A DNA stretch of 64,000 nucleotides from Nitrospira sp. (GTDB lineage: Bacteria > Nitrospirota > Nitrospiria > Nitrospirales > Nitrospiraceae), in the NCBI GenBank assembly GCA_047150005.1, contig AP038806.1, positions 3,424,001-3,488,000 on the forward strand. Reading direction: 5' to 3'. The notes under the pieces are model-generated. The model was not told where the DNA came from and did not search any database. It saw only the letters and a list, made by a program, of their open reading frames with translations. The position numbers and the translations under genes are program-made. Below are positions 1,906 through 22,356 of the stretch, piece by piece (the first letter of the stretch is position 1; each line of letters begins with the position of its first letter).

Positions 1906-4900
1906 TCATGAAGTGCAATCGGATGACACACCATCGGGAAATCCCTGCTTGAGGAATCCCGGCGGAGCGATCCGCCGTAAGGAAATAATTAAGGTGTTGC
2001 CGTCTAGCAGCGGGGGTGCCTGAGTGACATTTCCAGCAGGAGATTCTAGCGTTATCCCAGCCAAGGGACTGGTGAGCCACCCGCCCGGCTCGGTCGGAAG
2101 TGTGTCCCGTCCCGCAACGACGAAGCTGCTGACTTCGCCACGGGCGATCGCGGCGCAGCGCTGGCTGAGTAACGCAGTCACTTGTAACGGGGCTTTGCCG
2201 AGCGGCTGAATCTTGCCGCCGGCCGGCGCAATCGGCGCCTGGATCGTGACCGTGCCGTTCACGCCGGATTGCGAAGACGCGCTCACGACACTGGTGGCAT
2301 CCGGCAGGAAGGTGCCCCCGTTCGTAATATTGATCAAGATATTACCGCCGGGCCCCTGTTGGGCCTGGGCGAGAATCTGACTGTTTTGGAGAATGACGAA
2401 CTGCGGGTCGAGGCTCACGCTCCCGCCGCCGCCCGTGCCGTCGAGCACCGACGCGCTGATCGTGCTGTTGGACAGGTCCACCGTGCCGCTGGGATTCGTC
2501 GTGATCTTGATGATGCCGCCGCTCGATTGATTCGCCTCGGTCGTGATCGTGCTGTTGGTCATCGCGAACTGATTGCCGGCCGTGATCTGAACACTTCCCG
2601 CGTTGCCCGTTCCCGTGCTGTTGGCGGAGATGCTCGCGCCATTGGTCATGATGAACGACTGCCCGGCCGTGATCCCGATATCGCCGCCGGCTGCGCCGCC
2701 GGTTGTGCTGGTGAGAATACGGCCGCCGTTCTCGATCATCACAGTCGGGGCCGAGAGCGTAATCTGCCCCGCGTGACCGGTTGCGCCGGAGTCGCTGCTG
2801 CTGCTGATCGCCGTGGAGGATCCTGAGATGAGAGCCTGCTGAGTCGCTGCAATGGTGATCGCCCCGGCTGCCCCGGCGCCGAAGGTATCGGCGTTTATAG
2901 TGGCATGATCGGTGAGGGTGAATTGGCCGGCGTGAATGCTGATGTCTCCGGCGGTTCCGTCTGCCGCTGTCAGACTGTGGACCCGGCTGGCTCCCGAGAT
3001 CGTGACGCTCTCGGCCGAACTCCCTGGGCCATCGAGTCCCCGCAACGTGACCGTACCGCCATGACCTGAACCAGATGTGACCGCAAAGAGATCCGCACCC
3101 GCTCCTTGTGAATTAATTCGCTGACCCTCTAGGAGGATGTTCCCAGCATTTCCAGCCCCGGACGTGGACGTGCTCAGGACTGCTCCGTCGACAGTAATCG
3201 TCGGAGCTCTGAGCAGGATATTGCCGCCCAACCCGGATCCGCCTACGGTATCGGTGTTTAAAAAAGAATTCACTGCAGTGATCTGTTGGGTCGCCCGCAG
3301 GGCAATATTGCCGGCATTACCCGCCGTGTTGTCACCTGCGGAACTCAGTGCGTTGATAGTGGACAGTCCAGACAAATTGATTGTGGCGGCGTTCACCTGA
3401 ATGTCGCCTCCGTGGTTTGAGCCCGAGGTCGTGGCCGAGAGCGTGCCGCCGTCGGAGAGCGTGACGGAGTCGGCATTGACAAAGATATTGCCACCTGCGC
3501 CCGCAGCCTGGGTGTCGGTGAAGATGCCGCTGCCGGCGCCGGTGATGAGTACGGACTGGGCCGGACTGGCGAGTCCCTCAATGGTGATACTGCCGGCGTT
3601 GCCGGGGCCGCTGGTGCTGGCTGAAACTTGCGCACCCTCCGAAATGGTGACGGAATTTCCGGCTAGCAGGGTAATGTTGCCGCCGGATCCCCCGGCTGAA
3701 CTGGTCGCGAAAACTCCGCTGGGGTTGCCGTCGGCAGTTGTACCGGCGATTGCGATCTGACCCGCGCGGACCGTGATATCGCCTCCTGTTCCCGCACTAT
3801 TGGTGCTGCTATCGATGCGGCCGCCTTGGCTCAGGTTCAACGTCTCGGTGGTAATCGATGTGAGTCCGGCGTTTCCACAAGGGCCGGTGCAGAATTCGCT
3901 CTGGACGGTACGCGAATAGATGCCGCTGGCGAGGCTGGTCACAATGTCAAAGAGCGGCCCTTCGATGGCGGGAAATGGGCGCGCCCCATCGATCACGATG
4001 GTATCTGCCGCCACTGTGATGTGGCCCCCATTTCCGTTCGATGATGTACTCGCGTCAAACCGCGCCCCCCCCCGTAGTTCCAGGGCGGACGTATTGACTC
4101 TAATTTCTGCGGCATTGCCGGTACCGATGTTGGACGTCGTGAAGAGTCCGCTCGGCCTGTTCGGAGCCGCTTCCCCGGGATCATCCGAAAAGGTAAGACG
4201 CTCCGTAGCGGTAAACGTAATGTTGCCAGCGTTTCCCTCTCCAAATGTACTGCTCTGCACGGTGCTTCCATTGGTGAATCGTCCAATTCTTCCATTGAAG
4301 ATGATGCCGCCTCCACTTTCGGCGACGGTGGTGGTGTCGATCTGTGATTCATCCAGGGAGAGAGTATCCGCAGTGATTCGGACTGTGCCGCTTCTTATTC
4401 TTCCAGAGGATGAGAGGGCGCTGCTCTTCGTGAGCTGAACATCCCGGCCTGAAATGGTGATATCACCGCCTCGGCCGGCGAAGAAGCCGTCTGTCACCAG
4501 AAACGCATCGGTCAGCTGTATGGTCTCGGCATTCACGGTCAGATTGCCGCCTGACCCAGCCGCTTCCTCGAATAAATTGTTTGCGACAAAATCACCCGTA
4601 TTGATACTGGCGTGCTGGATGTCGATATTCTTGGCAGTCAGCGTCACATTGCCTCCGTGACCTCCTGCCGGCCCGATCGTGCCGCTGTCGATGAAGAAGA
4701 TAATCCCGGATTGATCGCTCGATGCCGCGATGGTGTCCGTCGCCGTAATGGTGACGTCCCCGGCTTTGCCGGCACCGGACGTATGTGTGTCAATGACGGG
4801 GACGACGAAGTTGTCGACCGCCGAACCTGCTACGTTCAGATTTTGTGATGTGATGCGGATTTCCCCGGCGTCGCCTGAACCGGTGGTTCTTGCGGTGAGA

Positions 4901-5928
4901 GCCGGAACGTCCACGGTCGAGACAGACACATCCCCCGTCGCATGAATATCGATGGCAATCGGCGCACCATTGCCAGTGCCGGTGTCGACGGCGATCGACG
5001 CATGGTCTATCACTAGCTGGCCACCTCGAATACGAACGGTTCCCGCCGAGTCGGCCGAAACGTCGAGCAACGTCCCTTGGGTAAGACTTACATTCCCTCT
5101 TGTCATGCCCGCGGCGGGCATGAAATCGACGGACGTAACTTCGCCTGCCGCAGCCACGCTTGCGATATTGATCTGCCCGCTCGGCGCAGACAACCTGCCG
5201 GACTGGATGGTGACATTTCCCCCGACCAATGAAATGCCGGTTCCGTCTGATACCGTCAGATGACTGCCCTGGATCGCAATCGCGGCGGGGTTCGAGCCAA
5301 GAAATCCAAACGCAGCGACGTTGGCAGTTGTGAGAACACTATTGCTCGCAGGATTGGCGTAAAACACCCCCGCCACACCATTGCTTTCGGCAAACTTCAG
5401 ATAATCGGCCGTCGTGAAGGTCGCCATCCCGCCGATGTTTAAGGTTGCAGTCGGGCCGAAAATCACGCCAGCGGGATTCATGAGAAAGAGATTGGCTCCG
5501 GGATAGTAGGTGGCGCTGTCGATCGCGCCGAAAATGCTGGACGGACTGCCACCGGTCACCCGACTGAGGATGTTGCTCATGCTCGAATTGACCGAGAGAT
5601 TGTTCGTTTGAAACTGCGCGATATCACCGGAGCCGACGCTGAATTGATTGAAGCTGTGAAAGAGGTTGCTCCCTACCGTCTGGCCCCCCTTGATGCCGTA
5701 GACATTGCCGCTCGAGGTCACTTGGGTCCCGAGGTCACCTGCGCCGGTCGTGCGCGTGATGGAGGATGCCGCCTCGGCAAGCGTGCCTAGACTTTCAGGG
5801 TGCGAGATTGCTATAGAAAAGAAGAGCCCTGCGCTGACCACGCGGACGGCACAAGTCACCACATATGAGGACGCAAGCGACAGCCGGGTTGCCCTTCTCG
5901 CTTCAGGCAGGAAGTTCCTGAGTTTCAT
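1906..5928 (-). CDS. Filamentous hemagglutinin family / TpsA-like protein 1 (1340 aa)
   Basis: Signal peptide; TPS domain (NLFHSF, NILSRVTGG, NPAG); G/S/T-rich beta-helix repeats; C-terminal LLSQRC..SSFVVAGRDTLP.EPGGWL.SPL domain. Confidence 0.92.
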   Translation of the reverse strand: MKLRNFLPEARRATRLSLASSYVVTCAVRVVSAGLFFSIAISHPESLGTLAEAASSITRTTGAGDLGTQVTSSGNVYGIKGGQTVGSNLFHSFNQFSVGSGDIAQFQTNNLSVNSSMSNILSRVTGGSPSSIFGAIDSATYYPGANLFLMNPAGVIFGPTATLNIGGMATFTTADYLKFAESNGVAGVFYANPASNSVLTTANVAAFGFLGSNPAAIAIQGSHLTVSDGTGISLVGGNVTIQSGRLSAPSGQINIASVAAAGEVTSVDFMPAAGMTRGNVSLTQGTLLDVSADSAGTVRIRGGQLVIDHASIAVDTGTGNGAPIAIDIHATGDVSVSTVDVPALTARTTGSGDAGEIRITSQNLNVAGSAVDNFVVPVIDTHTSGAGKAGDVTITATDTIAASSDQSGIIFFIDSGTIGPAGGHGGNVTLTAKNIDIQHASINTGDFVANNLFEEAAGSGGNLTVNAETIQLTDAFLVTDGFFAGRGGDITISGRDVQLTKSSALSSSGRIRSGTVRITADTLSLDESQIDTTTVAESGGGIIFNGRIGRFTNGSTVQSSTFGEGNAGNITFTATERLTFSDDPGEAAPNRPSGLFTTSNIGTGNAAEIRVNTSALELRGGARFDASTSSNGNGGHITVAADTIVIDGARPFPAIEGPLFDIVTSLASGIYSRTVQSEFCTGPCGNAGLTSITTETLNLSQGGRIDSSTNSAGTGGDITVRAGQIAIAGTTADGNPSGVFATSSAGGSGGNITLLAGNSVTISEGAQVSASTSGPGNAGSITIEGLASPAQSVLITGAGSGIFTDTQAAGAGGNIFVNADSVTLSDGGTLSATTSGSNHGGDIQVNAATINLSGLSTINALSSAGDNTAGNAGNIALRATQQITAVNSFLNTDTVGGSGLGGNILLRAPTITVDGAVLSTSTSGAGNAGNILLEGQRINSQGAGADLFAVTSGSGHGGTVTLRGLDGPGSSAESVTISGASRVHSLTAADGTAGDISIHAGQFTLTDHATINADTFGAGAAGAITIAATQQALISGSSTAISSSSDSGATGHAGQITLSAPTVMIENGGRILTSTTGGAAGGDIGITAGQSFIMTNGASISANSTGTGNAGSVQITAGNQFAMTNSTITTEANQSSGGIIKITTNPSGTVDLSNSTISASVLDGTGGGGSVSLDPQFVILQNSQILAQAQQGPGGNILINITNGGTFLPDATSVVSASSQSGVNGTVTIQAPIAPAGGKIQPLGKAPLQVTALLSQRCAAIARGEVSSFVVAGRDTLPTEPGGWLTSPLAGITLESPAGNVTQAPPLLDGNTLIISLRRIAPPGFLKQGFPDGVSSDCTS

Positions 5929-5944
5929 ACTTCACCCTCATGGT

Positions 5945-6349
5945 TCACATACAAGCACAATCACACCGACCGTTATCCTTATTCCAGGTGGTCTTACAAG
6001 TCTTGTTGGGGTAGAAGCTGCAGTTAGCCTGACCGGGGTTGGTGCACTTCTTATTTTGTCCACCGGTCCAGGTGCACTTCTCGGTGCCCGGCAGGCTTTC
6101 CAGCGTATCGCCGGTGGGTTGACCAGAATTGTTGATGACCACGGAGTTGCTTGGAGCGTCGCTATTCACCGCCACGTCGGTCTTTTGGCAGGGAGCCCCA
6201 GGTTCTTCCGACCCACCGGGCTTTGCTTCACCACAGTTCACCATCACTGATTGCGTAATGGGACTATGGCACCCTTGGAGGGCAATGAGGAAAGCTACGG
6301 CTACTGTCCAGCGGACCATGCCAACTATTCGGACGGGGACGCTCTTCAT
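5945..6349 (-). CDS. Cys-rich lipoprotein A (9 Cys after the lipobox, C-terminal GRCDCAC)
   Basis: Hydrophobic signal ending in LQGC; GGAGG RBS; paralogs at 21883 and 32215. Confidence 0.8.
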   Translation of the reverse strand: MKSVPVRIVGMVRWTVAVAFLIALQGCHSPITQSVMVNCGEAKPGGSEEPGAPCQKTDVAVNSDAPSNSVVINNSGQPTGDTLESLPGTEKCTWTGGQNKKCTNPGQANCSFYPNKTCKTTWNKDNGRCDCACM

Positions 6350-6398
6350 TGGCTACCTCCTGATCGTGTTAGGAATGATCCGGGTTCTCTGTGACGCA

Positions 6399-7136
6399 TT
6401 ATCCCGGATTGTGCTCATCATGGGCCCTCGCTTGTTGGGCAAGTAGCGCGAACACCACCGCGGCTTCCACTGGGACCCCTTCCGTCAACCCGTACAATTG
6501 CCTCGTCGCCAACGGTGTCAACTTGAGAGTTTCATCGGGATGATCGCCCAAGAAGTGTAGGTTCAGAACGGGGAACCAGACCACGAAATCCGAGTCTGAC
6601 TTCTTATGACGCATCACCAATGTGATGAGTTGTTGCAGCCCGTAAGCCGTGGTTGTGAAATCCTGCGTTTCCATAACGCGCGACACGACCAGAGACGAGC
6701 GGACTTGACCCGCGACGCTCAAGGGATAGAGACGAGATTCAAGCTGACTGATCAAAGGAGCGACTTTATCCCCAGGCTTGTACTCACGTATTCGGGTGAG
6801 ACCGATGGTATAGATATCAATCGGCTTGCCAATGTGAACGTTTGAGGCATCCTCCACTTTATCGAAACCGAGAAGCTTTGAGTTGGCGGAGTTAATCAGC
6901 GACTTGAATTTGGAACATCCTTCCAATGCTTTCATATTCCACTTTTTCAAATCTTCCGTAGGTGGCGATTGACCCGTCGTAGCCGTAAGCGGCGACGGTG
7001 GTGTGACGGCCGTGGAGCCGGGGGAAGGGACTTGTCCTGGACCAGGCAGGCACGGCACAGGCTGTGCCGACGCGTATGAACCAATCTGGCCCATCAGGAT
7101 TCCCAGAACAAAGATCATCATTCGCACGGTACGCAT
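6399..7136 (-). CDS. Secreted protease-partner protein
   Basis: Signal peptide; homologous to 22357..23076 (LGF; YP/FP..G.VR.S..V; F.V..P.L...FLG; A..VF..L). Confidence 0.8.
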   Translation of the reverse strand: MRTVRMMIFVLGILMGQIGSYASAQPVPCLPGPGQVPSPGSTAVTPPSPLTATTGQSPPTEDLKKWNMKALEGCSKFKSLINSANSKLLGFDKVEDASNVHIGKPIDIYTIGLTRIREYKPGDKVAPLISQLESRLYPLSVAGQVRSSLVVSRVMETQDFTTTAYGLQQLITLVMRHKKSDSDFVVWFPVLNLHFLGDHPDETLKLTPLATRQLYGLTEGVPVEAAVVFALLAQQARAHDEHNPG

Positions 7137-7157
7137 GCCGGCATCCCTCCTCAAGTC

Positions 7158-7790
7158 TCACCTTGCAATGTCGTAGTAGGTTCTCCAATGTTCATAGGAC
7201 CCATCCGCCGCTACACCGAATAAATGTTTGAATTTCAGAATGGCAGGGCCACGGAATCCATCGGGGTCAATCACCAACACGAACTGTTCGCCATCTTCGT
7301 CAAGTTGGTAACCGATCACCGTCCCCATATGGCCCCCACCCGAAACGAATTTAATGGCAACGGCAAGGGGGAGACCACTGTCGATCTGCGCTACAACCTG
7401 ATCCCAGCTCAAAGGTCGGCTTGTCTGCTTGGACTGAAATCCATAGCGCTCAAAATGAGGCCAGCCCGAACGATTGCAAAGCGGACTCTCAGGGTCATCG
7501 CAACAGGTCGAAGGGTCGCTTTTCCCCGGAAAGCTGTCATCGGCCTGGATGCATTGAAGCCACTGAGGTTGCCCATGGAATGTCATGATCATGTCCGCAG
7601 TGGCTGCCCAACACCAACGGTCGCTCTTTTGCTTTTTGAAAAACCTCGCCCCGGCATCCGGATCGTCTCCGAAGACAAATTTGTAATACAACGGACGCTC
7701 ATTTTCGGGGGTTGCCGGCTGTCCGAGGGCATGGGAACCCCCTAAGAGCACGGCGACTGTCACGAGGCCTGCGCAAGTCTTTCGCATCAT
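7158..7790 (-). CDS. Secreted papain-like cysteine protease (C39-like / C70 AvrRpt2-like)
   Basis: Signal peptide; QKSDRWCWAA (Gln, Cys), GGGHMGTVIGY (His), VIDP (Asp). Confidence 0.85.
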   Translation of the reverse strand: MMRKTCAGLVTVAVLLGGSHALGQPATPENERPLYYKFVFGDDPDAGARFFKKQKSDRWCWAATADMIMTFHGQPQWLQCIQADDSFPGKSDPSTCCDDPESPLCNRSGWPHFERYGFQSKQTSRPLSWDQVVAQIDSGLPLAVAIKFVSGGGHMGTVIGYQLDEDGEQFVLVIDPDGFRGPAILKFKHLFGVAADGSYEHWRTYYDIAR

Positions 7791-7808
7791 GTGAGGCTCC
7801 TGTTCTTT

Positions 7809-7898
7809 TCAAAAGCACGAGAGATCGTCAAAACGCCTTTCCGAGAAGTGCTGAGCAGGGGGGAGGGGATCACTCTTTCGGTGAAGGTAAGACGTCAT
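7809..7898 (-). other. 29-aa upstream ORF MTSYLHRKSDPLPPAQHF..., homologous to the N-terminal leaders starting at 24153 and 35140
   Basis: Manual translation; matches MTLHLHRNSRPSPPAQQ in the other modules. Confidence 0.4.
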
Positions 7899-7938
7899 GA
7901 AGTGGTATCCCGTTTCGCCTAGGTGCTAATCAGCCGCC

Positions 7939-7982
7939 TACCTATGCTTATAATGAAAATCCCGCAATAACCCTTTCGGCTA
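7939..7982 (-). promoter_or_regulatory. Module promoter: imperfect palindrome plus TTG..-N17-TAGGTA
   Basis: TAACCCTTTCGGCTA next to TTGCGG-17-TAGGTA; same spacing in 4 copies. Confidence 0.55.
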
Positions 7983-8178
7983 GGGGCGATGGCCTCTGCT
8001 CCTCCATCTCTAGCTGTAGCAGTAAGATCTCCGTGTCACCCCACAGCTTGTAAAAGCCGTATTATCTGGTTCGTCTCGTTTGTGCGGTCTGTCTTACTTC
8101 ATCCTCATTCAGCATCGACTCCGTTCATAGCTCAGGACGCTGCACTCAGCACGCAGCACTCAGAGCTCATGACTGCTT
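7965..8178. repeat. About 210-bp direct repeat, near-identical to 41566..41779
   Basis: Direct sequence comparison; the six-frame ORFs at 7989 and 41590 share their N-terminal translation. Confidence 0.9.
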
Positions 8179-8180
8179 CC

Positions 8181-8267
8181 CTAGGCCTGCCAGATGATCT
8201 CGATGACGATGTAGACCAGCGCCGCCATGAGAGTGTTGGCGAGAAACAAGCTCATTCCGATGTCCAT
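8181..8267 (-). CDS. 28-aa single-TM peptide, copy 1 (MDIGMSLFLANTLMAALVYIVIEIIWQA)
   Basis: GAGG RBS; five copies of identical length in the window. Confidence 0.7.
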   Translation of the reverse strand: MDIGMSLFLANTLMAALVYIVIEIIWQA

Positions 8268-8608
8268 GATTGCCTCGGTGACGATTCGGTTCACTGCTGC
8301 CCTCGCGAGAGTGCAATGGGTAGACCAATGAGAGATTTGACGCGAGTCAACGGCAGGTGAAGCGTGAGATCGCAGTGTGGACAATGAGATCTGCCGGTGC
8401 GGGGATTCACAGCATGGCGACAGAAGGATCTAGCGCGATCAGGCCGAAAGGACCTAAAAGCATTCGCGATGGATCGAAAGTGATTCAGTAGACAAGGTCG
8501 CGATAGTGGGATGAGAAAAGCCTCAATACGGGAGACTGGAGATCGAGGGGTTAAGAAACCCCGTGTATGCCTGACAGCCAGCCACGTGGCAATTCGAATT
8601 TCTGGATG

Positions 8609-8711
8609 TCAGGACGTGCAGTCCGTGACCCAATCCTCTGCGAGGAGCTATGCCACTTTGCTCGGGGAGGGGAGCCGGCGCAACGAAACGAGCAGCGACC
8701 CTTCGGAGTGA
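8609..8711 (-). pseudogene. Orphan TpsA 3'-tail remnant
   Basis: Translates SEGSLLVSLRRLPSPSKVA*LLAEDWVTDCTS*, matching the tails of the 14422 and 28104 genes. Confidence 0.85.
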
Positions 8712-8743
8712 CCCTGCTGAGCCTCGGCGAGAAACTGACCAGA

Positions 8744-8772
8744 TTGACATACAGCCATAACAGCAGTATGGT
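8744..8772 (+). promoter_or_regulatory. Sigma70 promoter of the vapBC pair, probably leaderless
   Basis: TTGACA-17-TATGGT, 7 nt before the ATG at 8780; overlapping ccata/tatgg inverted repeat. Confidence 0.7.
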
Positions 8773-8779
8773 TTTCCAT

Positions 8780-9007
8780 ATGAAGACCACGTTGAATATT
8801 GATGCATCCGTCATGGCCAGGCTGAAGCGGGAAGCGGTGCGGCAGGGCCGGACCATGTCGGAGCTGGTCGAGACCGCGTTGCGGGCCCTTCTTCGCGCAC
8901 AGAAAACACGGCACGCTCTTCCACCTTTGCCGTCCTTCAAGAGCGGTGGCCAGCTCGTGGACGTAGCTGACAGAGACGCGTTGTATCAAGCGATGGAAGG
9001 GCGGTAG
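8780..9007 (+). CDS. vapB: VapB-like ribbon-helix-helix antitoxin
   Basis: MKTTLNID...GRTMSELVETALR; overlaps the start of a PIN gene. Confidence 0.85.
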   Translation: MKTTLNIDASVMARLKREAVRQGRTMSELVETALRALLRAQKTRHALPPLPSFKSGGQLVDVADRDALYQAMEGR

Positions 9008-9450
9008 TGTTTGTCGTCGATACGAACGTCCTGATCTATGCGGCCGATGAGGACTCCTCCCCCCATCTGCAGTGCCGAAGGTTGCTGGATGAGTGGCGCC
9101 AACAGGCGTCGGTTTGGTGCGTGACCTGGGGCATCCTGTACGAATTTCTCAGAGTCGCGACACACCCACGGGTCTTACGAACTCCATGGATTGCCAGCCA
9201 GGCCTGGCGATTTGTCGATGTGCTATTGGCCTCTCCAGGGCTCGAGGTGCTCGTTGAGAGCGAACGTCATGTGGCGATTGCCGATCAGGTGTTGCGCCAG
9301 GTACCTCAGCTAGCAGGTAACCTTCTGCACGATGCGCACACTGCGATCTTGATGCGAGAACATGGGATTCGTCGGATCTACACCAGGGACACCGACTTTC
9401 ACCGCTTCCCGTTTCTTGAAGTGATCGATCCCCTTCAAGCGTCCGCCTAG
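9007..9450 (+). CDS. vapC: VapC PIN-domain toxin
   Basis: VVDTNVL, EFLRV, DAHTA, TRDTDF. Confidence 0.9.
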   Translation: MFVVDTNVLIYAADEDSSPHLQCRRLLDEWRQQASVWCVTWGILYEFLRVATHPRVLRTPWIASQAWRFVDVLLASPGLEVLVESERHVAIADQVLRQVPQLAGNLLHDAHTAILMREHGIRRIYTRDTDFHRFPFLEVIDPLQASA

Positions 9451-9614
9451 AATCGAGGGGGAGAGGCGCGCCATCTCAGAAGCGGCGTTGTCAACTTCCC
9501 GCCATCGCAGATTCTCAGAAGACGAGTCTTCGGGTGCGTCGCAAGGGCACGATCGCTTGACTTCGAGCGTATGACGATTATGTGATCGATCATAATATCG
9601 TAAGGAGACCGGTC

Positions 9615-9824
9615 ATGGCATCGACAACGATTTCACCGAAGTTTCAGATTGTGATTCCGAAAGCCGTCAGAGAAAAACTCGGCCTCACCCCGAGTCGGCG
9701 CTTACAGGTCGTGGAGAAGGGAGGTGTCATTACACTCGTGCCCGAAGCGTCTCTGAAATCCCTCAAGGGTGTGCTCAAAGGCATGACCAGGACGGAGATT
9801 CGGGAAAAGAAGGATCGTCTGTGA
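9615..9824 (+). CDS. AbrB/MazE/SpoVT antitoxin
   Basis: TTISPKFQIVIPKAVREKLGL; AAGGAG RBS. Confidence 0.9.
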   Translation: MASTTISPKFQIVIPKAVREKLGLTPSRRLQVVEKGGVITLVPEASLKSLKGVLKGMTRTEIREKKDRL

Positions 9825-10192
9825 AGGTCGTGCTGGATTCCAGCGGCTGGATTGAATTCTTTACCGGAGGACCGCTGGCCGAGCGGTACGCGGCCTATCT
9901 CAGCTCTCGCTATCAGCTCATCACACCGACCGTCGTTCTGTATGAAGTGTACAAGAAGATCAAGAGAGAACGGGGAGAAGAAACCGCCTTATTGCTGGCC
10001 GGACGGCTCAATACGACTGAGGTGATCCCCTTGACCGACTCCATTGCTTTCCTGGCCGCTGACTTGAGCCTGCGCCATGGTTTGGCCATGACCGATGCCA
10101 TCGTCTATGCCACGGCCAAAGACCAGCAGGCCGAGGTGATCACCAGCGATGCCGATCTCAAGGATCTTCCCGGGGTGTCCTACTTCCGTTAG
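9821..10192 (+). CDS. vapC: VapC PIN-domain toxin
   Basis: VLDSSGWIE, YEV, DAIVYATA, TSDAD; GTGA overlap with the antitoxin. Confidence 0.9.
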   Translation: MKVVLDSSGWIEFFTGGPLAERYAAYLSSRYQLITPTVVLYEVYKKIKRERGEETALLLAGRLNTTEVIPLTDSIAFLAADLSLRHGLAMTDAIVYATAKDQQAEVITSDADLKDLPGVSYFR

Positions 10193-10386
10193 CAGGCTGT
10201 TGACAAAGCCCGCCAGCGGCGTTCTCGCATCGCTCAGAGGCTTAACGTACGGCAAAGAGTACGCGCTTCGCCTCTTCACTCGCTGCGGCCTTTCTGAACA
10301 GCCTGCACCGTATGCTGGTGGCGTCCGTGGCCTCAGGCACGACCCCAGTTCCGAAGTCATCCCGTAGTTTGTCAACACGCTGTTAG
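10190..10386. repeat. MITE-like element with terminal inverted repeats, flanked by TAG
   Basis: TAG-caggctgttgacaaa ... tttgtcaacacgctgt-TAG; no credible coding content. Confidence 0.6.
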
Positions 10387-10405
10387 CTGTTCCGGTCTTC
10401 CGCTA

Positions 10406-10505
10406 TTACGACCCGCAGCCACCCAGCCGGTCGAGGGGACTGGGTGCACAAACCCCTAATCCAGCTCCGAAGAAGGGGAGATCGTCGGCGCATCGACGCA
10501 CAAGT
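10406..10505 (-). pseudogene. Degenerate TpsA 3'-tail remnant
   Basis: ASMRRRSP, then after a frameshift SPLDRLGGCGS*; compare ISLRRLPS...SPLDWLADCES* of the 18582 gene. Confidence 0.65.
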
Positions 10506-10567
10506 GCGTGGTCTGTGTACGCTCTCAAAATTCGTGTATGTTTCCTGATGACGGGGAGCTTTGGATC

Positions 10568-10954
10568 TTACCAGAGGGTTCTGATGGGATATTGCGTGAG
10601 GAGGGGATCCGGTGTCAGGAGCACGCAGTCGTGCTCGATCGCCTGGCAAACCAACATCCGGTCGAACGGGTCTCGATGCAAGGTGGGAAGTTTGTGGAGG
10701 TGGAGGGCCGCCCCCTCATGAAGCGGCAAAGGCGTGATTTGATGATGCTCACGTTGCTCGGCGACAAATCGATTAATCATGCCAGGAACAGGTAGCCTCC
10801 CCAGCGAATGTTTTATCGAAAGTTCCCACACCGACACCGCGCTGAGGAAGATCTCATTCACCGGATTGGCGAAGGTCTCCCGGACTGCTCCGGAAAGTTC
10901 CTTGGCATCCGCGATGATCCACAAGAACGTGCAGGTATCGAGGAGGCACTTCAC
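10568..10954 (-). CDS. vapC: VapC PIN-domain toxin
   Basis: LLDTCTFLW, SVWELSIK, HRDPFDRMLVCQA. Confidence 0.92.
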   Translation of the reverse strand: MKCLLDTCTFLWIIADAKELSGAVRETFANPVNEIFLSAVSVWELSIKHSLGRLPVPGMINRFVAEQREHHQITPLPLHEGAALHLHKLPTLHRDPFDRMLVCQAIEHDCVLLTPDPLLTQYPIRTLW

Positions 10955-11196
10955 GCTGACGGACCGTCAAATGCGCTGAGGAGATCGTCCGGGAGGGGAT
11001 CAAAGAATGTTGGTGGGACGGCAAATCGTCCCTTGCACAATCCAATAGGGCGCGGACGGACCGGCGACTGAGGCAACGGGGTGATTTCCGCCACAGGCTG
11101 ATTGCGTCGGCAGATCAGAATGCGCTCTCCTGCCTTCAGCTTAGCCAAGTACTTGGAAAGATGCGTTTTTGCCTCGTGGATATTCAGCTTTATCAT
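10951..11196 (-). CDS. Phd/YefM antitoxin
   Basis: MIKLNIHEAKTHLSKYL...GE.I.I.RR.QPVA. Confidence 0.92.
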   Translation of the reverse strand: MIKLNIHEAKTHLSKYLAKLKAGERILICRRNQPVAEITPLPQSPVRPRPIGLCKGRFAVPPTFFDPLPDDLLSAFDGPSA

Positions 11197-11202
11197 GGAC
11201 AC

Positions 11203-11231
11203 AAAGTAAACTAGATAGTTGACTAAGTCAA
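11203..11231 (-). promoter_or_regulatory. Sigma70 promoter/operator of phd-vapC, probably leaderless
   Basis: TTGACT-17-TACTTT, 6 nt before the ATG; palindrome TTGACT-T-AGTCAA. Confidence 0.65.
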
Positions 11232-11279
11232 GAGGCTGAATTGTCTCCCTTCCGACCGGTGACTGTCCCCGCTGGAGGG

Positions 11280-14255
11280 CTAAGAGCCACACTCAGTGAG
11301 CCAATCCTCTCCGGCCAATTGCATTGCCACTCGCCACTGAGAGGGGAGCCGGCGCAGCGAAATGAACGCCGTATCGTTGGAATCAGCTGAGAGTCCCGGT
11401 GCAAGAGCCTGGATCGATGGTCCACCTCCAGCGGGCGTGGACGCGAGCGGGCTGGTCAGCCAGCCGCCTGGGTCGGTCGGCAGGGTGTCGCGTCCGGCCA
11501 CGATAAAGCTGCTGACTTCGCCACGGGCGATCGCGGTGCACCGTTGGCTGAGCAAGGCTGTCACTTGAAGAGGAGCCTTGCCGAGCGGCTGGATTTTGCC
11601 GCCGGCTGTGGCGATCGGCGCTTGGATCGTAACCGCTCCGTTCTGACCGAACTGGGACGAGGCGCTCACGACGCTGCTGGCATCCGGGAGAAATAACCCG
11701 CCGTTCGTGATCGCAATGTTGATGTTGCCGCCCGGCCCCTGCACCGCCTGTGCGAGGATCTGACTGTTTTGCAAAACCACGAATTGCGGATCGATATTGA
11801 CGCTCCCGCCCCCGCCAGCGCCATCCAGGACCGACGCGCTGATCGTGCTGTTGGAAAGCTCCACCATTCCGTTCGGGCTGGTTGTGATTTTGATAGTGCC
11901 GCCACTCGATTGGTTGGCCTGTGTCGTCACCGAGCTGTTCGTCATCGCGAACTGGTTGCCAGAGTTGATCGAGATGTTGCCTGCGTTGCCCGAGCCGGTA
12001 CTGCTCGCGGAGATGGACGATCCACTGTTTAGAGTGACTGACTGCCCAGTGGTAATGGAGATGTTGCCCCCGGGACCACTGGCAGAACCGGTGCTGCTGA
12101 TTCCTGACGCGTCATCCGCCAAGAAGGTGTTGGCGGCAAGTAAGATGTTTCCGGCTGGCGCGCCTCCCTGCGTATCAGTCTTAATTTTGCTATGAGTCAG
12201 GTGAATGGTGTCTGCCGTCACCGTGAGTATGGCAGGAGTGGTCTGTGAGGTACCGCTGAATACCCCCATATTAAGCTCGATATTCTGAAGTGCAACCAGC
12301 TTGGCTGCATCGGTCGTTTGGGGACCAACGCCAGATATTGTGACGTTACCTGCCTGCCCCGACACAAGGCTCACGCTACCAATCAAGGCCCCGCTCCCGC
12401 CAGTGATGAGCGCCCCGTGCGTGGCATTGCCACGGAGTGTATTCACGTTGAGTGTAATATTACCTGCCGGCGCGCCCCCGTCACCGAATGAAGCCGTAAA
12501 GATTTGTGTGCCAGTATCGAGGCTCAGCGTATCCGTCGTGATGGTGATATTCCCCGGTGCTGTTCGGGGGTTGCCACCATCCACCCCTGTAGTGATGAAT
12601 GTGTTGTTGACGGCCACGAGCTGTGCGGCATCAGTAGACTCGGGGCGAATCCCGGAAATCGTGATGGTTCCAGTCGGCCCCGCCGTGATGCCGGGATCAT
12701 TATTTGAAATGACAAAGACTGTTTTGGCCCCTGCAATCGGCGTTTCGTCGGAAGTCACATTGCTGCGCAGCGTGTTCACGTTGAATGCCACATGCCCTCC
12801 GGGTGCAGAGCCGAGGGTATTCGCTACTATGGTTGCGGCACGTCCACCAGCCGGCAATCCCTCATTGACCAGCACCAGAGAATCGGCGGTAATGGTGATC
12901 GATGAGGGAGTCGTTTGCGGCGTCCCACCGAATACCCGGCTGCTGATCGTGGAATCTTTCAAGAGGACGCTTGTCGCCGCGGTTCCAGGTCCCCCGACGC
13001 CTTGGATGGTGATCGCCCCTGCAGGCCCGGCTCCCGCATCCGTGCTCCTACTGTCGCTGGCAATAAAGTTGCCGGCGAAATTAAAGTTGTTGGTTGGATT
13101 TAGTGGAAGGCGATTGAGGCCGGCTTGGGTGGTCAGCACGTCGACATTCAGCACGATGTCGCCACCCGCCGCTGTCCCGTAGCTGTCCGCTGTGATGAGT
13201 GCGCCGTTGCTGAATGCGGCGGTCTCTGCTGTGATGGATATCTTCGGAGAGCTGTTTGGTGAGGCAATCTCGCCACCCGGTCCGTTCATGCTAATCGCCT
13301 TGATGGAGGCGTCATTCATGATGAACTGGCCACCACGAATTACGATGCGTCCGGCTGTGTCAGCGCTCGTCTCAAGACTTGTTCCTTGTAAGAGACTGAT
13401 GTGTCCCAGCGCAGTAAAAGTTTGCCCATTGATGTTCTGAGCCGATTCCAAATTGGGAAAGAGGACTTCACCTGGCGAAGCCACACTGGCAAGACTAATC
13501 TGCCCTGCTGGCGCCGTGAGATTGGCAGCCTGGACGGTCCCCTGGACAGTCCCATTGTCCAACGTTCCATTCTGAATATTGATGTTCCCACCGATGAGTG
13601 AAATACCCATTCCTTCCGTGACCGATAGGTGGCTCCCTTGAACGGCGATGGCTCCCGGATTCGAGCCCAAGAACCCGAACGCCGCAACCGGCGCCGTGCT
13701 GAGCAACGCATCCGCGCTTACATGCGGGATTGCGTTGAATCGTGCACCATCAGCAAGCCGCAGATAATCAGCCGTTGTAAACGTCGCCATCCCGCCCACA
13801 TTCAAAGTAGCAGTCGGACCGAAGATCACGCCGGCGGGGTTCATCAGAAATAGGTTCGCATTGCCGAAGCCCCCGACGCCGTTCGTCTGAATCACTCCGA
13901 AAATGCTGGAGGGATTTCCCCCGGTGACGCGGGCCAGAATGTTGCTTGTCGGAAGACCAGAACCAAGCAGATTGCCGGCAAGGTCAACGGAGCCTGAGTT
14001 CACAAAGTTCGCGATGTTGTTTGCTGGCACATTGAAGTTGCTGAAACTGTGGAAGAGATTCATTCCACCATCCGGCCTTGATCCGCCGGTGATGTTGTAT
14101 TGCGTCGAGGTTCCAATTTGGACGGGATTGCTGACGATGGTGTGGAGATTGCCCGCGCCGGTGGTAGGCGTGATGGGTGCAGGCGTTTGGGCATGGACCA
14201 GTGGCGATTGCACCGCCCACCCGATCAACAGCCCGACGATCAAGATCCAGTTCAC
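11280..14255 (-). CDS. Filamentous hemagglutinin / TpsA-like protein 2 (991 aa)
   Basis: Signal peptide (VHA-Q), TPS domain, conserved C-terminal domain. Confidence 0.92.
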   Translation of the reverse strand: MNWILIVGLLIGWAVQSPLVHAQTPAPITPTTGAGNLHTIVSNPVQIGTSTQYNITGGSRPDGGMNLFHSFSNFNVPANNIANFVNSGSVDLAGNLLGSGLPTSNILARVTGGNPSSIFGVIQTNGVGGFGNANLFLMNPAGVIFGPTATLNVGGMATFTTADYLRLADGARFNAIPHVSADALLSTAPVAAFGFLGSNPGAIAVQGSHLSVTEGMGISLIGGNINIQNGTLDNGTVQGTVQAANLTAPAGQISLASVASPGEVLFPNLESAQNINGQTFTALGHISLLQGTSLETSADTAGRIVIRGGQFIMNDASIKAISMNGPGGEIASPNSSPKISITAETAAFSNGALITADSYGTAAGGDIVLNVDVLTTQAGLNRLPLNPTNNFNFAGNFIASDSRSTDAGAGPAGAITIQGVGGPGTAATSVLLKDSTISSRVFGGTPQTTPSSITITADSLVLVNEGLPAGGRAATIVANTLGSAPGGHVAFNVNTLRSNVTSDETPIAGAKTVFVISNNDPGITAGPTGTITISGIRPESTDAAQLVAVNNTFITTGVDGGNPRTAPGNITITTDTLSLDTGTQIFTASFGDGGAPAGNITLNVNTLRGNATHGALITGGSGALIGSVSLVSGQAGNVTISGVGPQTTDAAKLVALQNIELNMGVFSGTSQTTPAILTVTADTIHLTHSKIKTDTQGGAPAGNILLAANTFLADDASGISSTGSASGPGGNISITTGQSVTLNSGSSISASSTGSGNAGNISINSGNQFAMTNSSVTTQANQSSGGTIKITTSPNGMVELSNSTISASVLDGAGGGGSVNIDPQFVVLQNSQILAQAVQGPGGNINIAITNGGLFLPDASSVVSASSQFGQNGAVTIQAPIATAGGKIQPLGKAPLQVTALLSQRCTAIARGEVSSFIVAGRDTLPTDPGGWLTSPLASTPAGGGPSIQALAPGLSADSNDTAFISLRRLPSQWRVAMQLAGEDWLTECGS

Positions 14256-14421
14256 CGTTCATCCCTTCTCGGGGTGGTGAACAAATCCTCTGATTAGTCG
14301 TCGTTCAATAAGAAGGCCTCTGCCGTCGATATGGTATCACGAACCCGGTGAGGGCGGGAATGGTTCCTGACACTATCTTGTTCTGTTCTGACACCCTCGC
14401 TCTCTTACCTCACTCGCACCT

Positions 14422-17400
14422 CTACGAAGTTTCGCAGCCCGAAATCCAATCTGCTTCTGAAAGCAGCTGCGCCACCTTACTTGGGGAGGGGAGCCGGCGC
14501 AGGGACACGAACAGCGATCCGTCGGAGTGAGTCGCGATTGCGGGCACACCGGCTTTCACCGAGATTCCTCCTTCGGCGGGGATGGAAGCCAAGGGACTCG
14601 TGAGCCACCCGCCTGGTTCGATGGGCAAGGTATCCCGGCCCGCCACGACGAAGCTGCTGACTTCGCCTCGCGCGATGGCCGCGCAGCGTTGGCTGAGCAG
14701 GGCAGTGACTTGAAGGGGCGCCTTCCCGAGTGGCTGGATCTTACCGCCGGCCGGCGCATTGGGGGACTGAATGATGACGTTGCCGCTTTGGCCGAACTCA
14801 GAGGAGGCGCTCACACGACTGGTGGAATCCGGCAGAAACAACCCGCCGTTGGTGATGGTGATGCCAATGTTTCCTCCGGGCCCCTGTTTGGCCTCAGCGA
14901 GAATCTGACTGTTCTGCAGGATGACGAACTGCGGATCGATGTTCACGCTCCCGCCGCCGCCCGTCCCATCCAGCACTGACGCGCTAATCTTGCTGTTGGT
15001 AAGCTCGACCCTACCGCTGGGGTTCGTCGTGATCTTAATAATCCCGCCACCTGACTGATTCGCTTCCGTCGTCACCGAGCTATTGGACATGGCAAACTGG
15101 TCACCGGCGCTGATATTGACGTTGCCGGCTGTGCCGGTCCCAGTGCTGCTGCTCGAGATTTGACTGTTGTCTTGGAGCGTAACAGTCTGCGCGGACACAT
15201 CGATGTTGCCGGCAGACCCGGTGGGAACCAGTCCTTCTGCTCCGGCGACACTTCCGGTTGTAAGACGGCCCCCACTGCTAATCGACAGGGCGTCCACATT
15301 TAGGACAATCGCCCCTCCTGCCCCGTTTGTTTCTGTAGTGGCGGTGATCGTACCTCCCTCAGTGATCGCAAGGCTTGGGGTAGAAACGGAGATTGATCCA
15401 GCGTTGCCGTATTGAAAAGCCGGATCCACCCCGGCGGTGCTTCGGCTGCTTACCTCGCTGTTCGAAGCAATAACCACTTGGCTTGGAGTATCAATGCTGA
15501 TGTTGCCGGCATGTCCACGGCTGAATCGAGTCTCAGCGCTAATCTTGCTGTTGGTGAGTGACAACTGGTCGGCGGCAAGATCGATATTACCGGCAGCTCC
15601 TTCCCCTGGCAGCAAAGGATCGACATTTGTTGTTTCTGTCAGGATCTGGCTGTCGCTGGCCAGAGTGATCGTCTGAGCCTTGGTTCGTGGACCCTGAAGG
15701 CCGAGGACGCTAACAGTCCCTCCTTGGCCTTGACCAGCCACGGAAGAAGTGATTTCACTGAAGTTCATTGTCAGGCTGTTGGTCTGAAGAGTAATGGCGC
15801 CGGCATTGCCATGGCCGATAGCGGACGTGGCAATCGCGCTTGAAGACCTCAGATCAATAACCGGGGAACTGATGAACACTTGTCCGCTATTGCCGGCCGC
15901 TGGAGATTCGGAGAATGAGCCGCTCAGAATTGCGGAATTGCTCAAGCTTACGTGGTCGGTCGCGGTAATGTGCACGCTTCCCGCATTTCCTGAGCCCGCG
16001 AAGGCGCTGCTTCCTATGGACCCAAACCCAGTGAGCGCCACAGAACCCGCTTGAACCTCGATCCCACCGGCATTCCCTTCTCCGAAGGTGTCGGCAGATA
16101 TCATGGAGCCGTCAATGGCCAACGAGCCGCTCACAATGCTGATTTTTCCGGCATCTCCATCTCCCAGGGTCTGGGCAGTGATTGTCGCCCCGCTGCTAAG
16201 AGTGAGGCTCTGCGCCGGGCTCGCGAGCCCCTGGATCGTGACGTTGCCGGCGTTACCGGGACCGGTGGTGCTGGCTGAAACCTGAGCGCCATCAGAGATG
16301 GTGACGGACTGCCCGGCGTTGAGGGTAATGTTGCCGCCGGAACCAGAGTCGGGATCCGTCCCGATCGACCGGCTGAAGATGCCGACTGGGGTACCGTCGC
16401 TCAGAGTTCCGGACAAGGCGATCGTCTCAGTTGCTGAAACCGAAATATTCCCTCCCTGTCCACTGCTGCTCGTGCCGCTGTCGATCTGAGATCCGTTTGC
16501 CATCGCCAGGGATCCGGTATTAATCGAAATGTTTCCTGCGTTGCCACAGGAGCCTGAGCAGAACTCGCTCCCAACTGTCTGTGTAAGAATTCCACTAGGG
16601 TGGATATTCCCGATGAATCCCGGTCCCCCAACATCTGGGTTGGGAAATTCGCCTGAAATTTCAATCACGCCGGCATTTACTGTGACATTGCCACCACCGC
16701 CACTGGTGCTTGTACTCGTGCTAATCCGACCTTCATGCATTACCAATCGTGGCGTCGTAACAAACACGTTTCCTGACGCTCCTTCCGTACCGACGAATCC
16801 CAGTGAGTTGGTGAAGAGTCCAGCAGGGCCACCTTGAATATTCGAGCCGCTATTCCCGATGAGACTGAAATGGTCCGTCGCAGTCACATGAATGTCGCCA
16901 GCATTGGCTCCCGCGCCTCCGGAGGTATTAGTCAGAAAGGAGCTACCATTGGTCAACTCGATAACGCGCCCGTCGAAGCTAATCCCTCCTCCGGGACCGA
17001 AAGCCGTGAAGGTACTGAACACAGTGTTGGTCGCGAGCAACGAATCTCCGCTAATCGTGATCCCGCCTCTGCCGCCAAACGAGTCCGTCGCCACTTGAGT
17101 ATCGAGCATGGTGATATCACGCACGTTCAATCGTATGTTACCCCCATAATGAGAGGCGCTTGGAGTAACTGATGCACTGCTAATGAGGATTGCACCATCA
17201 GTATGCAGGCTATCCCCTGTGAGAGTCAGGTTACCGGACGGACCGCTGGGCTCGAAACCGAGGAGTTCAGCAAGCTGGGTTCCCGTGCTAAGTGTTGTGC
17301 CCGATAGGTCAATCCCATGAGCGACAATCTCCGTATCACCGCCCGGGCCACCCGCTTGCTGGCCACTATCGGAGAAATGCCATGTCGGAAAGGGGCCAAC

Positions 17401-18555: not shown

Positions 18556-18581
18556 TTGAACACTCGCCCGGCGTCTTCGGT

Positions 18582-21500: not shown

Positions 21501-21608
21501 CAGAACGATTGCCAATGTCAGAAACAGGGGTCCGGTTACTTGCATCGTCGTGGCGTGATAAAGGTGCAAATCAACTCTGGCATGGGGCAGCGAGAAGTGG
21601 ATGGTCAT
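18582..21608 (-). CDS. Filamentous hemagglutinin / TpsA-like protein 4
   Basis: Signal peptide (AMA-Q), TPS domain, conserved C-terminal domain; start codon uncertain. Confidence 0.88.
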   Translation of the reverse strand: MTIHFSLPHARVDLHLYHATTMQVTGPLFLTLAIVLPAMAQVAPTPGAGSLNTQVSKVGNVYQITQGTKAGPNLFHSFDTFSISALETAQFQTVNLIADQTVGNVLSRVTGGSVSSIFGTINSATYYPNANLFLMNPAGVIFGPAATLNIGGMATFTTADYLKLSDGTIFNASPNAAADALLSAAPVASFGFLGSKPAAILIEGSHLTVAEGTGISLVGGDITIKSGTLADQTVQPAKLAAPGGQINLVSVAGPGEVATANYQPASSMALGLISMSEGSSLDVSAESAGSIRIRGGQFELINSSLNADTGSLDAAQPAIDIELSGTLSISSDTVPALTARSFGSGNAGSITVSSPGISAVSTLPEVVALIDTHTEGSGNGGDITLNTGKLTFTGNPGGFDFFVMSGTAGEGNGGHVTIHADSMHLKEARIDTGDAILGGLGSGGHVTFTGGDMTFELVSIATDSLNARGGNVLIDGRNISIVNGSQIGPLSLLGESTVTINARNFALKDGSIIFNQTASGTGGGITITAENAEFRNGSRVFSQTSGDADAGFIKLSVTGNATFADTFDDPTIIPARSGLFTNSIGDVSLGTHGNAGAINVSAGSLTITGGARIDSTTQTNGNGGAITITAKEGVSIIGERPLGGLPERRASGIYTSTVGSELCTGPCGNAGSVTISGNSLNLGNGGTINSDTTNSGIGGNVTVHAANTITISGTMTDGTPSGVFSRTVGIDPGSGSGGNISLIAGQSVNISDGASVSASSTGSGPAGNINITAGNQFTMANSSVTTEANQSSGGIIKITTDPSGTVQLTNSTISASVLDGTGGGGSVNIDPQFVILQNSQILAEAVQGPGGNINVTITNGGLFLPDSTSRVSASSEFGQQGTVTIQAPIAPAGGKIQPLGAAPLQVTALLSQRCAAMARGEVSSFVVAGRDTLPIEPGGWLTSPLANTTTDGGLSVQALAPGLSADSNDTAFISLRRLPSQWVIAHLRGTGTAENGASPLDWLADCES

Positions 21609-21882
21609 CGGTTCCCCGGTTACACAAGCCACACGTTCGCAATAATACGCCTGATAACTGTGAGATCCCCAATCGTCATCGGTGCTGCCTTGAATGACCG
21701 AAGACACATCGCCACGTTCTGCACCTGTTCGGCGCATCAGCCGGGCAAGAATCTGTGGCACGCATGAGGTGAAGCAACCGTCTCAAACGATAAATTGAAT
21801 CGATTATGGGAAAGTCATTCCGCATCAGGGAGCACATGTCGAAACCGTTGGGCAATGCTTCATTCCCCCTCGATGAGGTTTG

Positions 21883-22320
21883 TTACGGATAAGCATTTGC
21901 ACAATCGCATCTGCAATTACCGTCTCTGCTACCCGGACTGACCGGAGATATCCACCAGGTCTTGCATGGAGGCCCTCCAAGCGTACAAGTTCCAGAAGGA
22001 GATTTGCATCTTGTATTGCCTGTTCCGGCCACGCACCGGTAGGGTGGACTCTGACCAGTTGGAACTTGCGTGCCATTGGTGAAATAGGTGTTCGCATCCG
22101 TGTTCCAAGGACTCACAATCGTTTGCTTTAGACAAGCTGTAGGTTCATCCTCTTGTCCTCCGCCCTCTCCACCTCCGCCAGACTTTGGTGGGCAGGTCAT
22201 CTGCACATTGACCGATACCTCGACGAATCCCCTATGACAACCTTGCAAGAAGGCCACAAGAACCAGGCCACTGAGCAATGCGCCTTTCTGCCAGCAACAA
22301 TTGGCTTCAAATGCTCGCAT
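21883..22320 (-). CDS. Cys-rich lipoprotein B
   Basis: GGAGG RBS, LQGC lipobox, 9 further Cys, GNCRCDC near the C-terminus. Confidence 0.8.
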   Translation of the reverse strand: MRAFEANCCWQKGALLSGLVLVAFLQGCHRGFVEVSVNVQMTCPPKSGGGGEGGGQEDEPTACLKQTIVSPWNTDANTYFTNGTQVPTGQSPPYRCVAGTGNTRCKSPSGTCTLGGPPCKTWWISPVSPGSRDGNCRCDCANAYP

Positions 22321-22356
22321 CAAATCCTCCCTGGGTAGAGCACCCTGATCGCCGTG

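Follow-up and report, generated by a model that had tools for sequence, protein, structure and literature searches.

Orphan tpsA 3′ ends alternate with toxin-antitoxin genes in two arrays of a Nitrospira genome and recur in related species

How do complete toxin-antitoxin (TA) gene pairs come to lie between short copies of the end of a tpsA gene? The question is raised by a 64,000-nt stretch of the genome of Nitrospira sp. (assembly GCA_047150005.1, contig AP038806.1, positions 3,424,001-3,488,000, forward strand; hereafter the window, whose first letter is position 1), in which TA pairs downstream of a large, secreted-adhesin-like two-partner secretion (TPS) gene, tpsA-B, alternate with fragments resembling tpsA 3′ ends. 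Nitrospira-type bacteria are nitrite oxidisers of environmental importance and, to our knowledge, the movement and clustering of chromosomal TA modules are poorly understood. A first-pass annotation of the window had proposed that units consisting of a TpsA tail and a TA pair accumulate by recombination at the conserved 3′ end of tpsA. The remnants, their recurrence and the mosaic ends of the tpsA genes support this proposal, while a third remnant and the restriction of the cargo to TA genes have to be given up. Judged by their sequence, the remnants are true 5′-truncated copies of the tpsA 3′ end, all of them in gene orientation, and they enclose TA cargo both in the two window arrays and elsewhere, in other species. 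The reading that we favour, with a probability of roughly 0.55, is that these arrays are tpsA 3′ ends displaced sequentially by homology-anchored recombination.

The window encodes five large TpsA paralogues, all on the minus strand and each possessing an N-terminal TPS secretion domain: TpsA-A (1906-5928), TpsA-B (11280-14255; 991 aa; Pfam TPS, E 1.9e-40; TIGR01901), TpsA-C (14422-18666), TpsA-D (18582-21761) and TpsA-E (28104-32144; Pfam TPS, E 4.9e-37). TpsA-B, which the first-pass annotation called TpsA2, heads array 1 and TpsA-E heads array 2. Domains were assigned by a Pfam scan of the 118 open reading frames (ORFs) of at least 110 aa in the window, with further evidence from Pfam and NCBIfam (TIGR) profiles applied to the TA and TpsA proteins. 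The C-terminal 200 aa are 74-77% identical across the five paralogues and share one layout, in which a strongly conserved block is followed by a variable linker and then by a conserved tail of ~30 residues ending in Cys-x-Ser-stop. The block, encoded by the last ~600 nt of tpsA, is 75-100% identical among paralogues; conservation of the tail is at the protein level.

Searching the window with the TpsA tails by blastn and tblastn, as the first-pass annotation had suggested, returned significant similarity at two places in array 1, both on the minus strand. The first is an orphan tail of C/E type at the distal end of the array (8609-8711), found by tblastn, blastn and nhmmer. It matches the tail of TpsA-C at 75% over 32 aa (tblastn, E 1.8e-10), the tail of TpsA-E (tblastn, E 1.6e-9), and the DNA at 14434-14530 at 77% over 97 nt (blastn, E 8e-15), bearing out the remnant annotated there. 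Its nhmmer E-value of 1.5e-22 is partly circular, since the remnant is itself one of the seven sequences from which the tail profile was built. Its 34 codons are interrupted by a single in-frame stop, within SKVA*LL. The second is the core of a D-type tail (10406-10443), of which positions 10407-10443 match the last 37 nt of tpsA-D (18583-18619), reaching into the stop codon (blastn, 84%, E 1.6e-4). The significance of remnants was judged by comparing local alignment scores with those of shuffled sequence (300 or 500 shuffles). By this measure the core scores 44, where shuffles average 18.4 +/- 2.4 and 0/300 of them reach its value, and 37 against 22.7 +/- 3.8 at the protein level, reached by 3/500. 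The sequence upstream of it (10444-10540) does no better than shuffles, 110/500 of which reach its score, so that only the 3′ core stands of the remnant that had been annotated at 10406-10505. A possible, very degenerate remnant at about 9453-9555, in the spacer between two TA pairs, was rejected: its score of 18 equals the shuffle mean of 18.0 and is reached by 171/300 shuffles, and neither tail HMM nor nhmmer searches matched the interval.

Three gene pairs in 8780-11196, with recognised domains and overlaps of 4 nt or 1 nt, have the features expected of type II TA genes, and the Pfam and NCBIfam matches confirmed them as predicted type II (VapBC-like) pairs, in agreement with the phd-vapC, abrB-vapC and vapB-vapC reported earlier downstream of TpsA2. 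Nearest to tpsA-B is a Phd/YefM-type antitoxin (10951-11196, minus strand; PF02604, E 1.8e-8; TIGR01552), the end of which is overlapped by 4 nt by the start of a PIN-domain, VapC-like toxin (10568-10954, minus strand; PF01850, E 2.3e-12). Beyond the 10406 core lie an AbrB/MazE-type antitoxin (9582-9824, plus strand; PF04014, E 2.1e-8; TIGR01439, E 3.9e-12) with its PIN-domain, VapC-like toxin (9821-10192, plus strand; PF01850, E 3e-20), and then a ribbon-helix-helix (RHH; CopG/VapB-like) antitoxin (8780-9007, plus strand; PF01402, E 2.3e-5; PF09957, E 7e-4) with a PIN-domain VapC toxin (9007-9450, plus strand; PF01850, E 1.7e-14; TIGR00028, E 3.7e-27, above its cut-off). Cassette orientation in array 1 is mixed, with one pair on the minus strand and two on the plus strand. 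A long, imperfect hairpin (10192-10306; 86% complementarity between arms of 22 nt) starts at the stop codon of the PIN gene 9821-10192, and the beginning of the gene for the AbrB antitoxin is overlapped by a 17-nt palindrome with an operator-like look (9574-9601).

The same pattern is repeated, with two more remnants, in array 2 (25007-28104). Moving away from tpsA-E, an antitoxin-like ORF (27376-27669, plus strand; DUF2281/VapB-like match, E 5e-5) and a MazF/PemK toxin (27656-27994, plus strand; PF02452, E 3.3e-13) are followed by a chimeric orphan tail of 72 codons (27104-27322, minus strand; tblastn E 1.2e-35). This orphan is 96% identical to the E tail (28138-28303; 166 nt) and 89% identical to 14409-14505; along its length it is 92-98% E-like and then, over the last 60 nt, 86% C-like, the C-like part including 13 nt past the stop codon. 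Next come a FitA-like RHH antitoxin and a frameshifted PIN toxin (26375-27010, plus strand; Pfam), then an element of the IS3 insertion sequence (IS) family with orfA and orfB recognised by Pfam (approximately 25117-26325, plus strand; boundaries, inverted repeats and 4-bp duplication judged by eye) and, at the distal end, a degenerate, in-frame orphan tail (25007-25075, minus strand; nhmmer E 0.0075). The score of the latter, 36 against 18.3 +/- 2.3 for shuffles, is reached by 0/300 of them, and the orphan ends in Cys-x-x-stop as intact tails do, 10 nt ahead of a ~949-bp repeat. In the RHH-PIN pair the antitoxin is intact and the PIN gene is split by the frameshift into two ORFs (26665-26829 and 26753-27010). 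The four orphans of the window (8609-8711, 10406-10443, 27104-27322 and 25007-25075) preserve 12-72 codons of the conserved tail. All share the orientation of tpsA and have TA cargo at their boundaries, and TA pairs occupy 4/4 tail-to-tail intervals. A search of a large protein collection for short proteins like the 76-aa orphan ORF gave two candidates, none of which scored, a result of little weight because the method needs shared exact words.

Both arrays end in the same way, the distal orphan being followed by a copy of the ~949-bp repeat, a C39/C70-like peptidase gene, a gene without assigned function, a small Cys-rich gene and, after these, the next tpsA. The two arrays therefore hold equivalent positions of a segmental duplication, and everything between head gene and distal tail looks like later additions.

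To see how tails and cargo are arranged in other genomes, we scanned relatives with an alignment of TpsA C-termini, taking one genome per species. This yielded 26 loci (L-numbers), 23 of which are labelled Nitrospirota/Nitrospiraceae/Nitrospira, L010 and L011 carrying other family names; the closest relative is 77-78% identical in the TpsA C-terminal block. The usual order is tpsA, tpsB (ShlB/POTRA_2) and a TPR-CHAT gene, and the stop codon of tpsA and the start codon of tpsB overlap in the sequence ATGA. The intact tail directly abuts tpsB in 8/26 loci (L001, L002, L003, L004, L007, L015, L018 and L021), and an insertion separates the two genes in 7/26 (L005, L009, L012, L016, L017, L019 and L022); in a further 10, the contig ends too early or tpsB does not fall within the locus. 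Six of the seven loci with an insertion keep an orphan tail, 6-70 codons long, joined to the start of tpsB, with E-values of 2.3e-14 in L016, 3.2e-13 in L019, 4.7e-9 in L017 and 3.3e-5 in L005, a weak match exactly in place in L009 (E 1.1) and ~6 codons recognised by eye in L012. The insertion of L022 has no orphan tail at the tpsB start. In L020, TA cargo is followed by an orphan tail (E 1.5e-14), and tpsB is not in the locus.

The cargo in these relatives is more varied than in the window. TA genes are found in L012 (PIN with a FitA-like RHH), L019 (ParE, RHH and DUF433) and L020 (DUF4258, an MqsA-like ORF and an MNT-type nucleotidyltransferase). L016 has an AF2212-like gene and a PIN gene downstream of its TpsA1, together with a haem peroxidase gene (An_peroxidase, 17090-19758); L005 likewise has an An_peroxidase gene (10624-13956); and in L010 a peroxidase-like N-terminus (5259-5425), recognised by eye, follows a tpsB stub before the contig ends. 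Pfam named no families in the insertions of L009, L017 and L022 or around an orphan upstream of tpsA in L022. TA pairs are thus present in 4/4 tail-to-tail intervals of the window and 3/7 of those of relatives, which makes the site an insertion hot spot for varied cargo, as opposed to a TA-specific device. The earlier description of the cargo as specifically type II TA accordingly does not extend to relatives, whose sites also hold haem-peroxidase genes and unannotated DNA. The RHH-PIN pair of array 2 and the pair lying between tpsA and tpsB in L012 are 71-75% identical at the amino acid level (tblastn to L012 10632-11290, E 3e-40 and 7e-37), have the same orientation relative to tpsA, and are both bracketed by a tail and an orphan tail.

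Might such layouts arise by chance, abundant TA genes inserting anywhere that is non-essential and the remnants being unrelated debris of an IS-rich, rearranged region? The window does hold several IS3 and IS4/5 transposases, the ~949-bp repeat lies beside both arrays, TA genes occur away from tails in relatives, and junction cargo is not always TA. We nevertheless consider this explanation very unlikely: tail, cargo and orphan follow one another in at least six independent genomes, where the orphan sits exactly at the start of tpsB, and all four toxin ORFs of at least 110 aa that Pfam named among the 118 (three PIN, one MazF) fall within the two arrays, which cover ~9% of the window, a count made post hoc.

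The eleven orphans that flank cargo keep 6 to ~72 codons, with their starts always on the downstream side of the conserved block; the remaining, twelfth orphan (L022, 5406-5568), located upstream of tpsA, reaches ~90 codons back into it. Start points differ from case to case, with no fixed crossover site. On the other side of the cargo, proximal tails in relatives often carry a 5′ stub of tpsB of 4-51 nt. The peroxidase ORF of L005 starts with the first ~11 codons of tpsB, and the ORFs that follow the stubs in L016 and L010 open with degenerate or shorter forms of it. Stubs and orphans together imply that the junction segment has been duplicated on both sides of the cargo. As an observation in its own right, two Cys residues are invariant in all five TpsA proteins of the window, one ~85 aa from the C-terminus, in the conserved block, and one 3 aa from it, in the final Cys-x-Ser. 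The pair brackets the variable linker and may close a loop by a disulphide bond; the eleven cargo-flanking orphans begin between the two residues and the L022 orphan approximately at the upstream one.

The window (D, C, B) has tpsA genes in tandem, as do L015, L016 and L021; in L015 and L021, tandem-duplication junctions are seen in the stubs that follow TpsA1. Together with the equivalent positions of the two arrays within a segmental duplication, these could be taken to mean that the region once held more full-length tpsA genes with independent TA insertions, and that later deletions left only their ends. Random deletions, however, should often leave long fragments. All 12 orphans are at most 90 codons long and derive from genes of 991-1414 aa, and searches with full-length TpsA queries, which were able to show longer fragments, found no long 5′-truncated tpsA fragments. 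Homology-based deletion between paralogues would in turn give hybrid genes, not orphans. Since the orphan break points cluster, decay of a tandem is disfavoured, and we regard it as unlikely.

Further evidence comes from the tpsA genes themselves, whose 3′ ends are mosaic when compared by sliding-window identity. The tails of B and D are of the same type (81-82% identical). tpsA-A and tpsA-E are 100% identical from ~-900 to -540 nt and yet only 33-45% identical in linker and tail, a pattern which indicates that gene conversion took place very recently and had a sharp break point ahead of the linker. Overall these two genes are 92% identical over 1632 nt (2059-3690 versus 28263-29894); the fully identical stretch of ~360 nt lies at approximately 2446-2805 and 28650-29009, and the last ~150 nt are unrelated tail types.

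Taken together, truncated and co-oriented remnants, the TA genes that they bracket and mosaic 3′ ends make recombination that moves a tail along with its downstream genes the most economical reading. From these features, and from their recurrence across species, all directly visible in the DNA, we infer the following course. Recombination anchored in the conserved block would import the linker, the tail and the downstream neighbours of another tpsA copy, perhaps through gene conversion between paralogues, perhaps through incoming DNA and homology-facilitated illegitimate recombination. At its other end the imported segment would join illegitimately inside the resident linker or tail, so that the resident tail would not be replaced and would instead be shifted downstream as a 5′-truncated orphan. 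Repeated rounds would leave cargo and orphans in alternation behind tpsA, the oldest unit being the one most distant from the gene. That TA pairs dominate the cargo of the window may reflect how commonly they neighbour tpsA copies; it is also possible that cargo between direct tail repeats would be easily deleted unless its loss harms the cell, which would favour TA genes. An orphan next to tpsB may be kept because it preserves the coupled tpsB start. Features expected of homology-facilitated illegitimate recombination are present on both sides: a conserved anchor of ~600 nt lies just upstream of the break points, with the eleven cargo-flanking orphans starting downstream of it and the cargo-less L022 orphan inside it, and the right-hand junctions are variable and non-homologous, both in the orphans (6 to ~72 codons) and in the tpsB stubs (4-51 nt).

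The duplicated junction segments would also be expected if a circle carrying a tail and a TA pair were excised between direct tail copies and then re-integrated, one homologous crossover with any tpsA tail sufficing to duplicate the tail around its cargo. Cargo flanked by direct repeats of the junction segment, with a proximal tpsB stub of 4-51 nt and 6-70 distal tail codons, is exactly the outcome of a single crossover, and orphan 27104 shares 96% identity with the E tail across 166 nt. The initial formation of a unit would still require an illegitimate event, though, and the tails that flank units in the window differ in type (B, D-like, C/E-like) and are only 49-84% alike, which makes them a poor substrate for excision. 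Circles of this kind therefore seem an improbable source of the arrays.

The repeated short units separating small gene cassettes also recall chromosomal integrons, in which TA cassettes are typical and may stabilise the array. On this explanation tail DNA would serve as the attachment site for a recombinase encoded elsewhere. Among the 118 ORFs of the 64-kb window there was no match to the Phage_integrase family, in keeping with the earlier remark that no integrase was in view, and Rfam gave 0 matches at E <= 1 in 5900-11400. Cassettes have mixed orientation, the 5′ boundaries of orphans vary from 6 to ~72 codons without a fixed crossover point, and what is repeated is the end of a protein-coding gene, conserved as protein. 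Nor were attC-type boundary repeats found, the inverted repeats that were seen being inconsistent and the boundary repeats being direct copies of the coding tail. A candidate flanking motif, inverted repeats with a GTTGACAA-like core around the AbrB-PIN pair, was rejected, as its 3 matches compare with 1.42 expected and at least 3 occurred in 18/100 shuffles. The integron likeness suggested by the first-pass annotation thus does not hold, and an integron-like origin, largely refuted, is scarcely credible. A 221-nt spacer folds modestly better than its shuffles (z -2.5). The only recombinase-like match seen near any tail was a fragment with a phage-integrase N-terminal SAM-like domain in L008 (4780-5100, minus strand), ~2 kb downstream of a tpsA tail.

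Displacement of tpsA 3′ ends has closer parallels among polymorphic toxin systems. [quoted passage not shown] The four co-oriented, 5′-truncated tpsA ends downstream of tpsA genes in the window display this feature. The displaced piece is different: in CDI it is a variable toxin domain, whereas here it is a conserved, non-toxic tail of ~30 codons. A VENN-like motif is absent from all five TpsA proteins of the window, and Pfam found in them no domain besides TPS and no toxin domain (best E in the C-terminal 200 aa, 0.09). The orphans are not toxin C-terminal fragments with cognate immunity genes, and the genes beside them are not single immunity genes: they are either complete TA pairs, of two genes each and facing either way, or genes for peroxidases. 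In addition, the order tpsA-tpsB-CHAT in relatives means that an orphan there stays fused to the tpsB start. Of the likeness to CDI/Rhs orphans drawn earlier, the mechanism of displaced 3′ ends is thus retained, and the VENN motif, toxin tip and immunity gene are not.

The arrays of type VI secretion system (T6SS) effector-immunity genes in Vibrio cholerae and the displacement of Rhs C-termini, for which the mechanism proposed is homology-facilitated illegitimate recombination (PMC5361080), offer a second parallel. They share with our arrays a conserved upstream anchor, a variable and illegitimate right-hand junction, an old downstream part that is kept and shifted, and growth by successive insertion; the retained immunity genes there have selective value, whereas the orphan tails of the window have no evident function. 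In relatives the retained orphan may preserve the tpsB start. The cargo of our arrays has no functional relation to the anchor gene. A literature search on Nitrospira two-partner secretion, toxin-antitoxin or hemagglutinin found no paper on this topic; PMC3482391 names Nitrospirae in its phyletic tables only.

Several observations weigh against sequential displacement of tpsA ends as the source of the arrays. Between the TA pairs at 9582-10192 and 8780-9450 no remnant could be detected, and the proximal orphan at 10406 is more degenerate than the distal one at 8609, which a simple order of age does not predict. For none of the units of the window was a donor identified, and the L022 orphan (5406-5568) has no TA genes nearby. 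TA genes also occur elsewhere in the flanks of relatives (L003 412-1064, L005 3197-3754, L020 and L023), and their enrichment at tails is putative. Our comparison runs between species, with one genome each; several relatives are frameshift-rich metagenome-assembled genomes, and fine details of their junctions may therefore hold assembly errors. Finally, nearly every relative has tpsB immediately downstream of tpsA, whereas the five tpsA genes of the window have neither tpsB nor TPR-CHAT. No gene or remnant of either was found in the 64 kb (nothing below E 0.19 by tblastn; best nhmmer E for a tpsB 5′-end profile 0.29, at an unrelated place). This implies that the window arrays are further rearranged than those of relatives, and that the transporter must be encoded elsewhere or that these TpsA copies are not secreted.

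The surroundings of the arrays add a number of observations. The ~949-bp repeat has two full copies (24049-24997 and 35036-35984; 98.3% identical), each abutting a different IS3-family element, and encodes a HicB-like antitoxin ORF (24433-24651; 35420-35635) and a 147-aa ORF without family. Partial copies lie at 7849-8075 with 8181-8488, 41563-41931, 42040-42090 and 43330-43458. The copy at array 1 (7849-8488), ~120 nt past the distal orphan, is 78-92% identical to 24104-24329 and 24682-24989 and does not include the hicB part. The trio of genes directly upstream of tpsA-A (7158-7790, 6399-7154 and 5945-6349) and of tpsA-D (23087-23857, 22357-23205 and 21883-22323) encodes a C39/C70-like papain-fold peptidase, a protein without assigned function and a small, Cys-rich, secreted-looking protein. 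Homologues of the first two genes are also found upstream of tpsA in L016, L010, L006 and L024, and the trio may provide accessory or processing functions for the TpsA family. Elsewhere in the window, a 1771-aa fusion of animal haem peroxidase and lipoxygenase (47735-53050) lies beside patatin-like (53057-55537) and FadL-like (55599-57092) genes; with the peroxidase genes between tpsA and tpsB in relatives, this points to a link between the TPS family and peroxidase genes. Two adjacent, overlapping ORFs of the thymidylate-kinase family (58471-59220 and 59168-59917; ~69% nucleotide identity over 170 nt) lie beside a Ppx/GppA phosphatase gene.

In summary, the architecture is real and recurrent, and is a variant of orphan, displaced-3′-end arrays in a tpsA family which lacks a toxin tip and has complete TA pairs as cargo; it takes the architecture of orphan modules outside the polymorphic toxin systems. 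Several TA pairs bear in their flanks a readable scar, a displaced gene end, which points to TA genes hitch-hiking on the recombination of a multi-copy gene family, as opposed to a dedicated mobile element. Displacement of this kind would predict that strains differ by whole units, that TA genes are enriched behind tails, and that the phylogenies of TA and tpsA genes disagree. More speculatively, and with considerable doubt on our part, the conserved block and tail could act as a portable homology anchor for integrase-free gene capture, through which genes landing behind one tpsA would be copied to other loci and strains by RecA-type recombination; TA pairs would accumulate because cargo between direct tail repeats would disappear unless losing it killed the cell, and the orphans would form a silent reservoir for switching TpsA tails.

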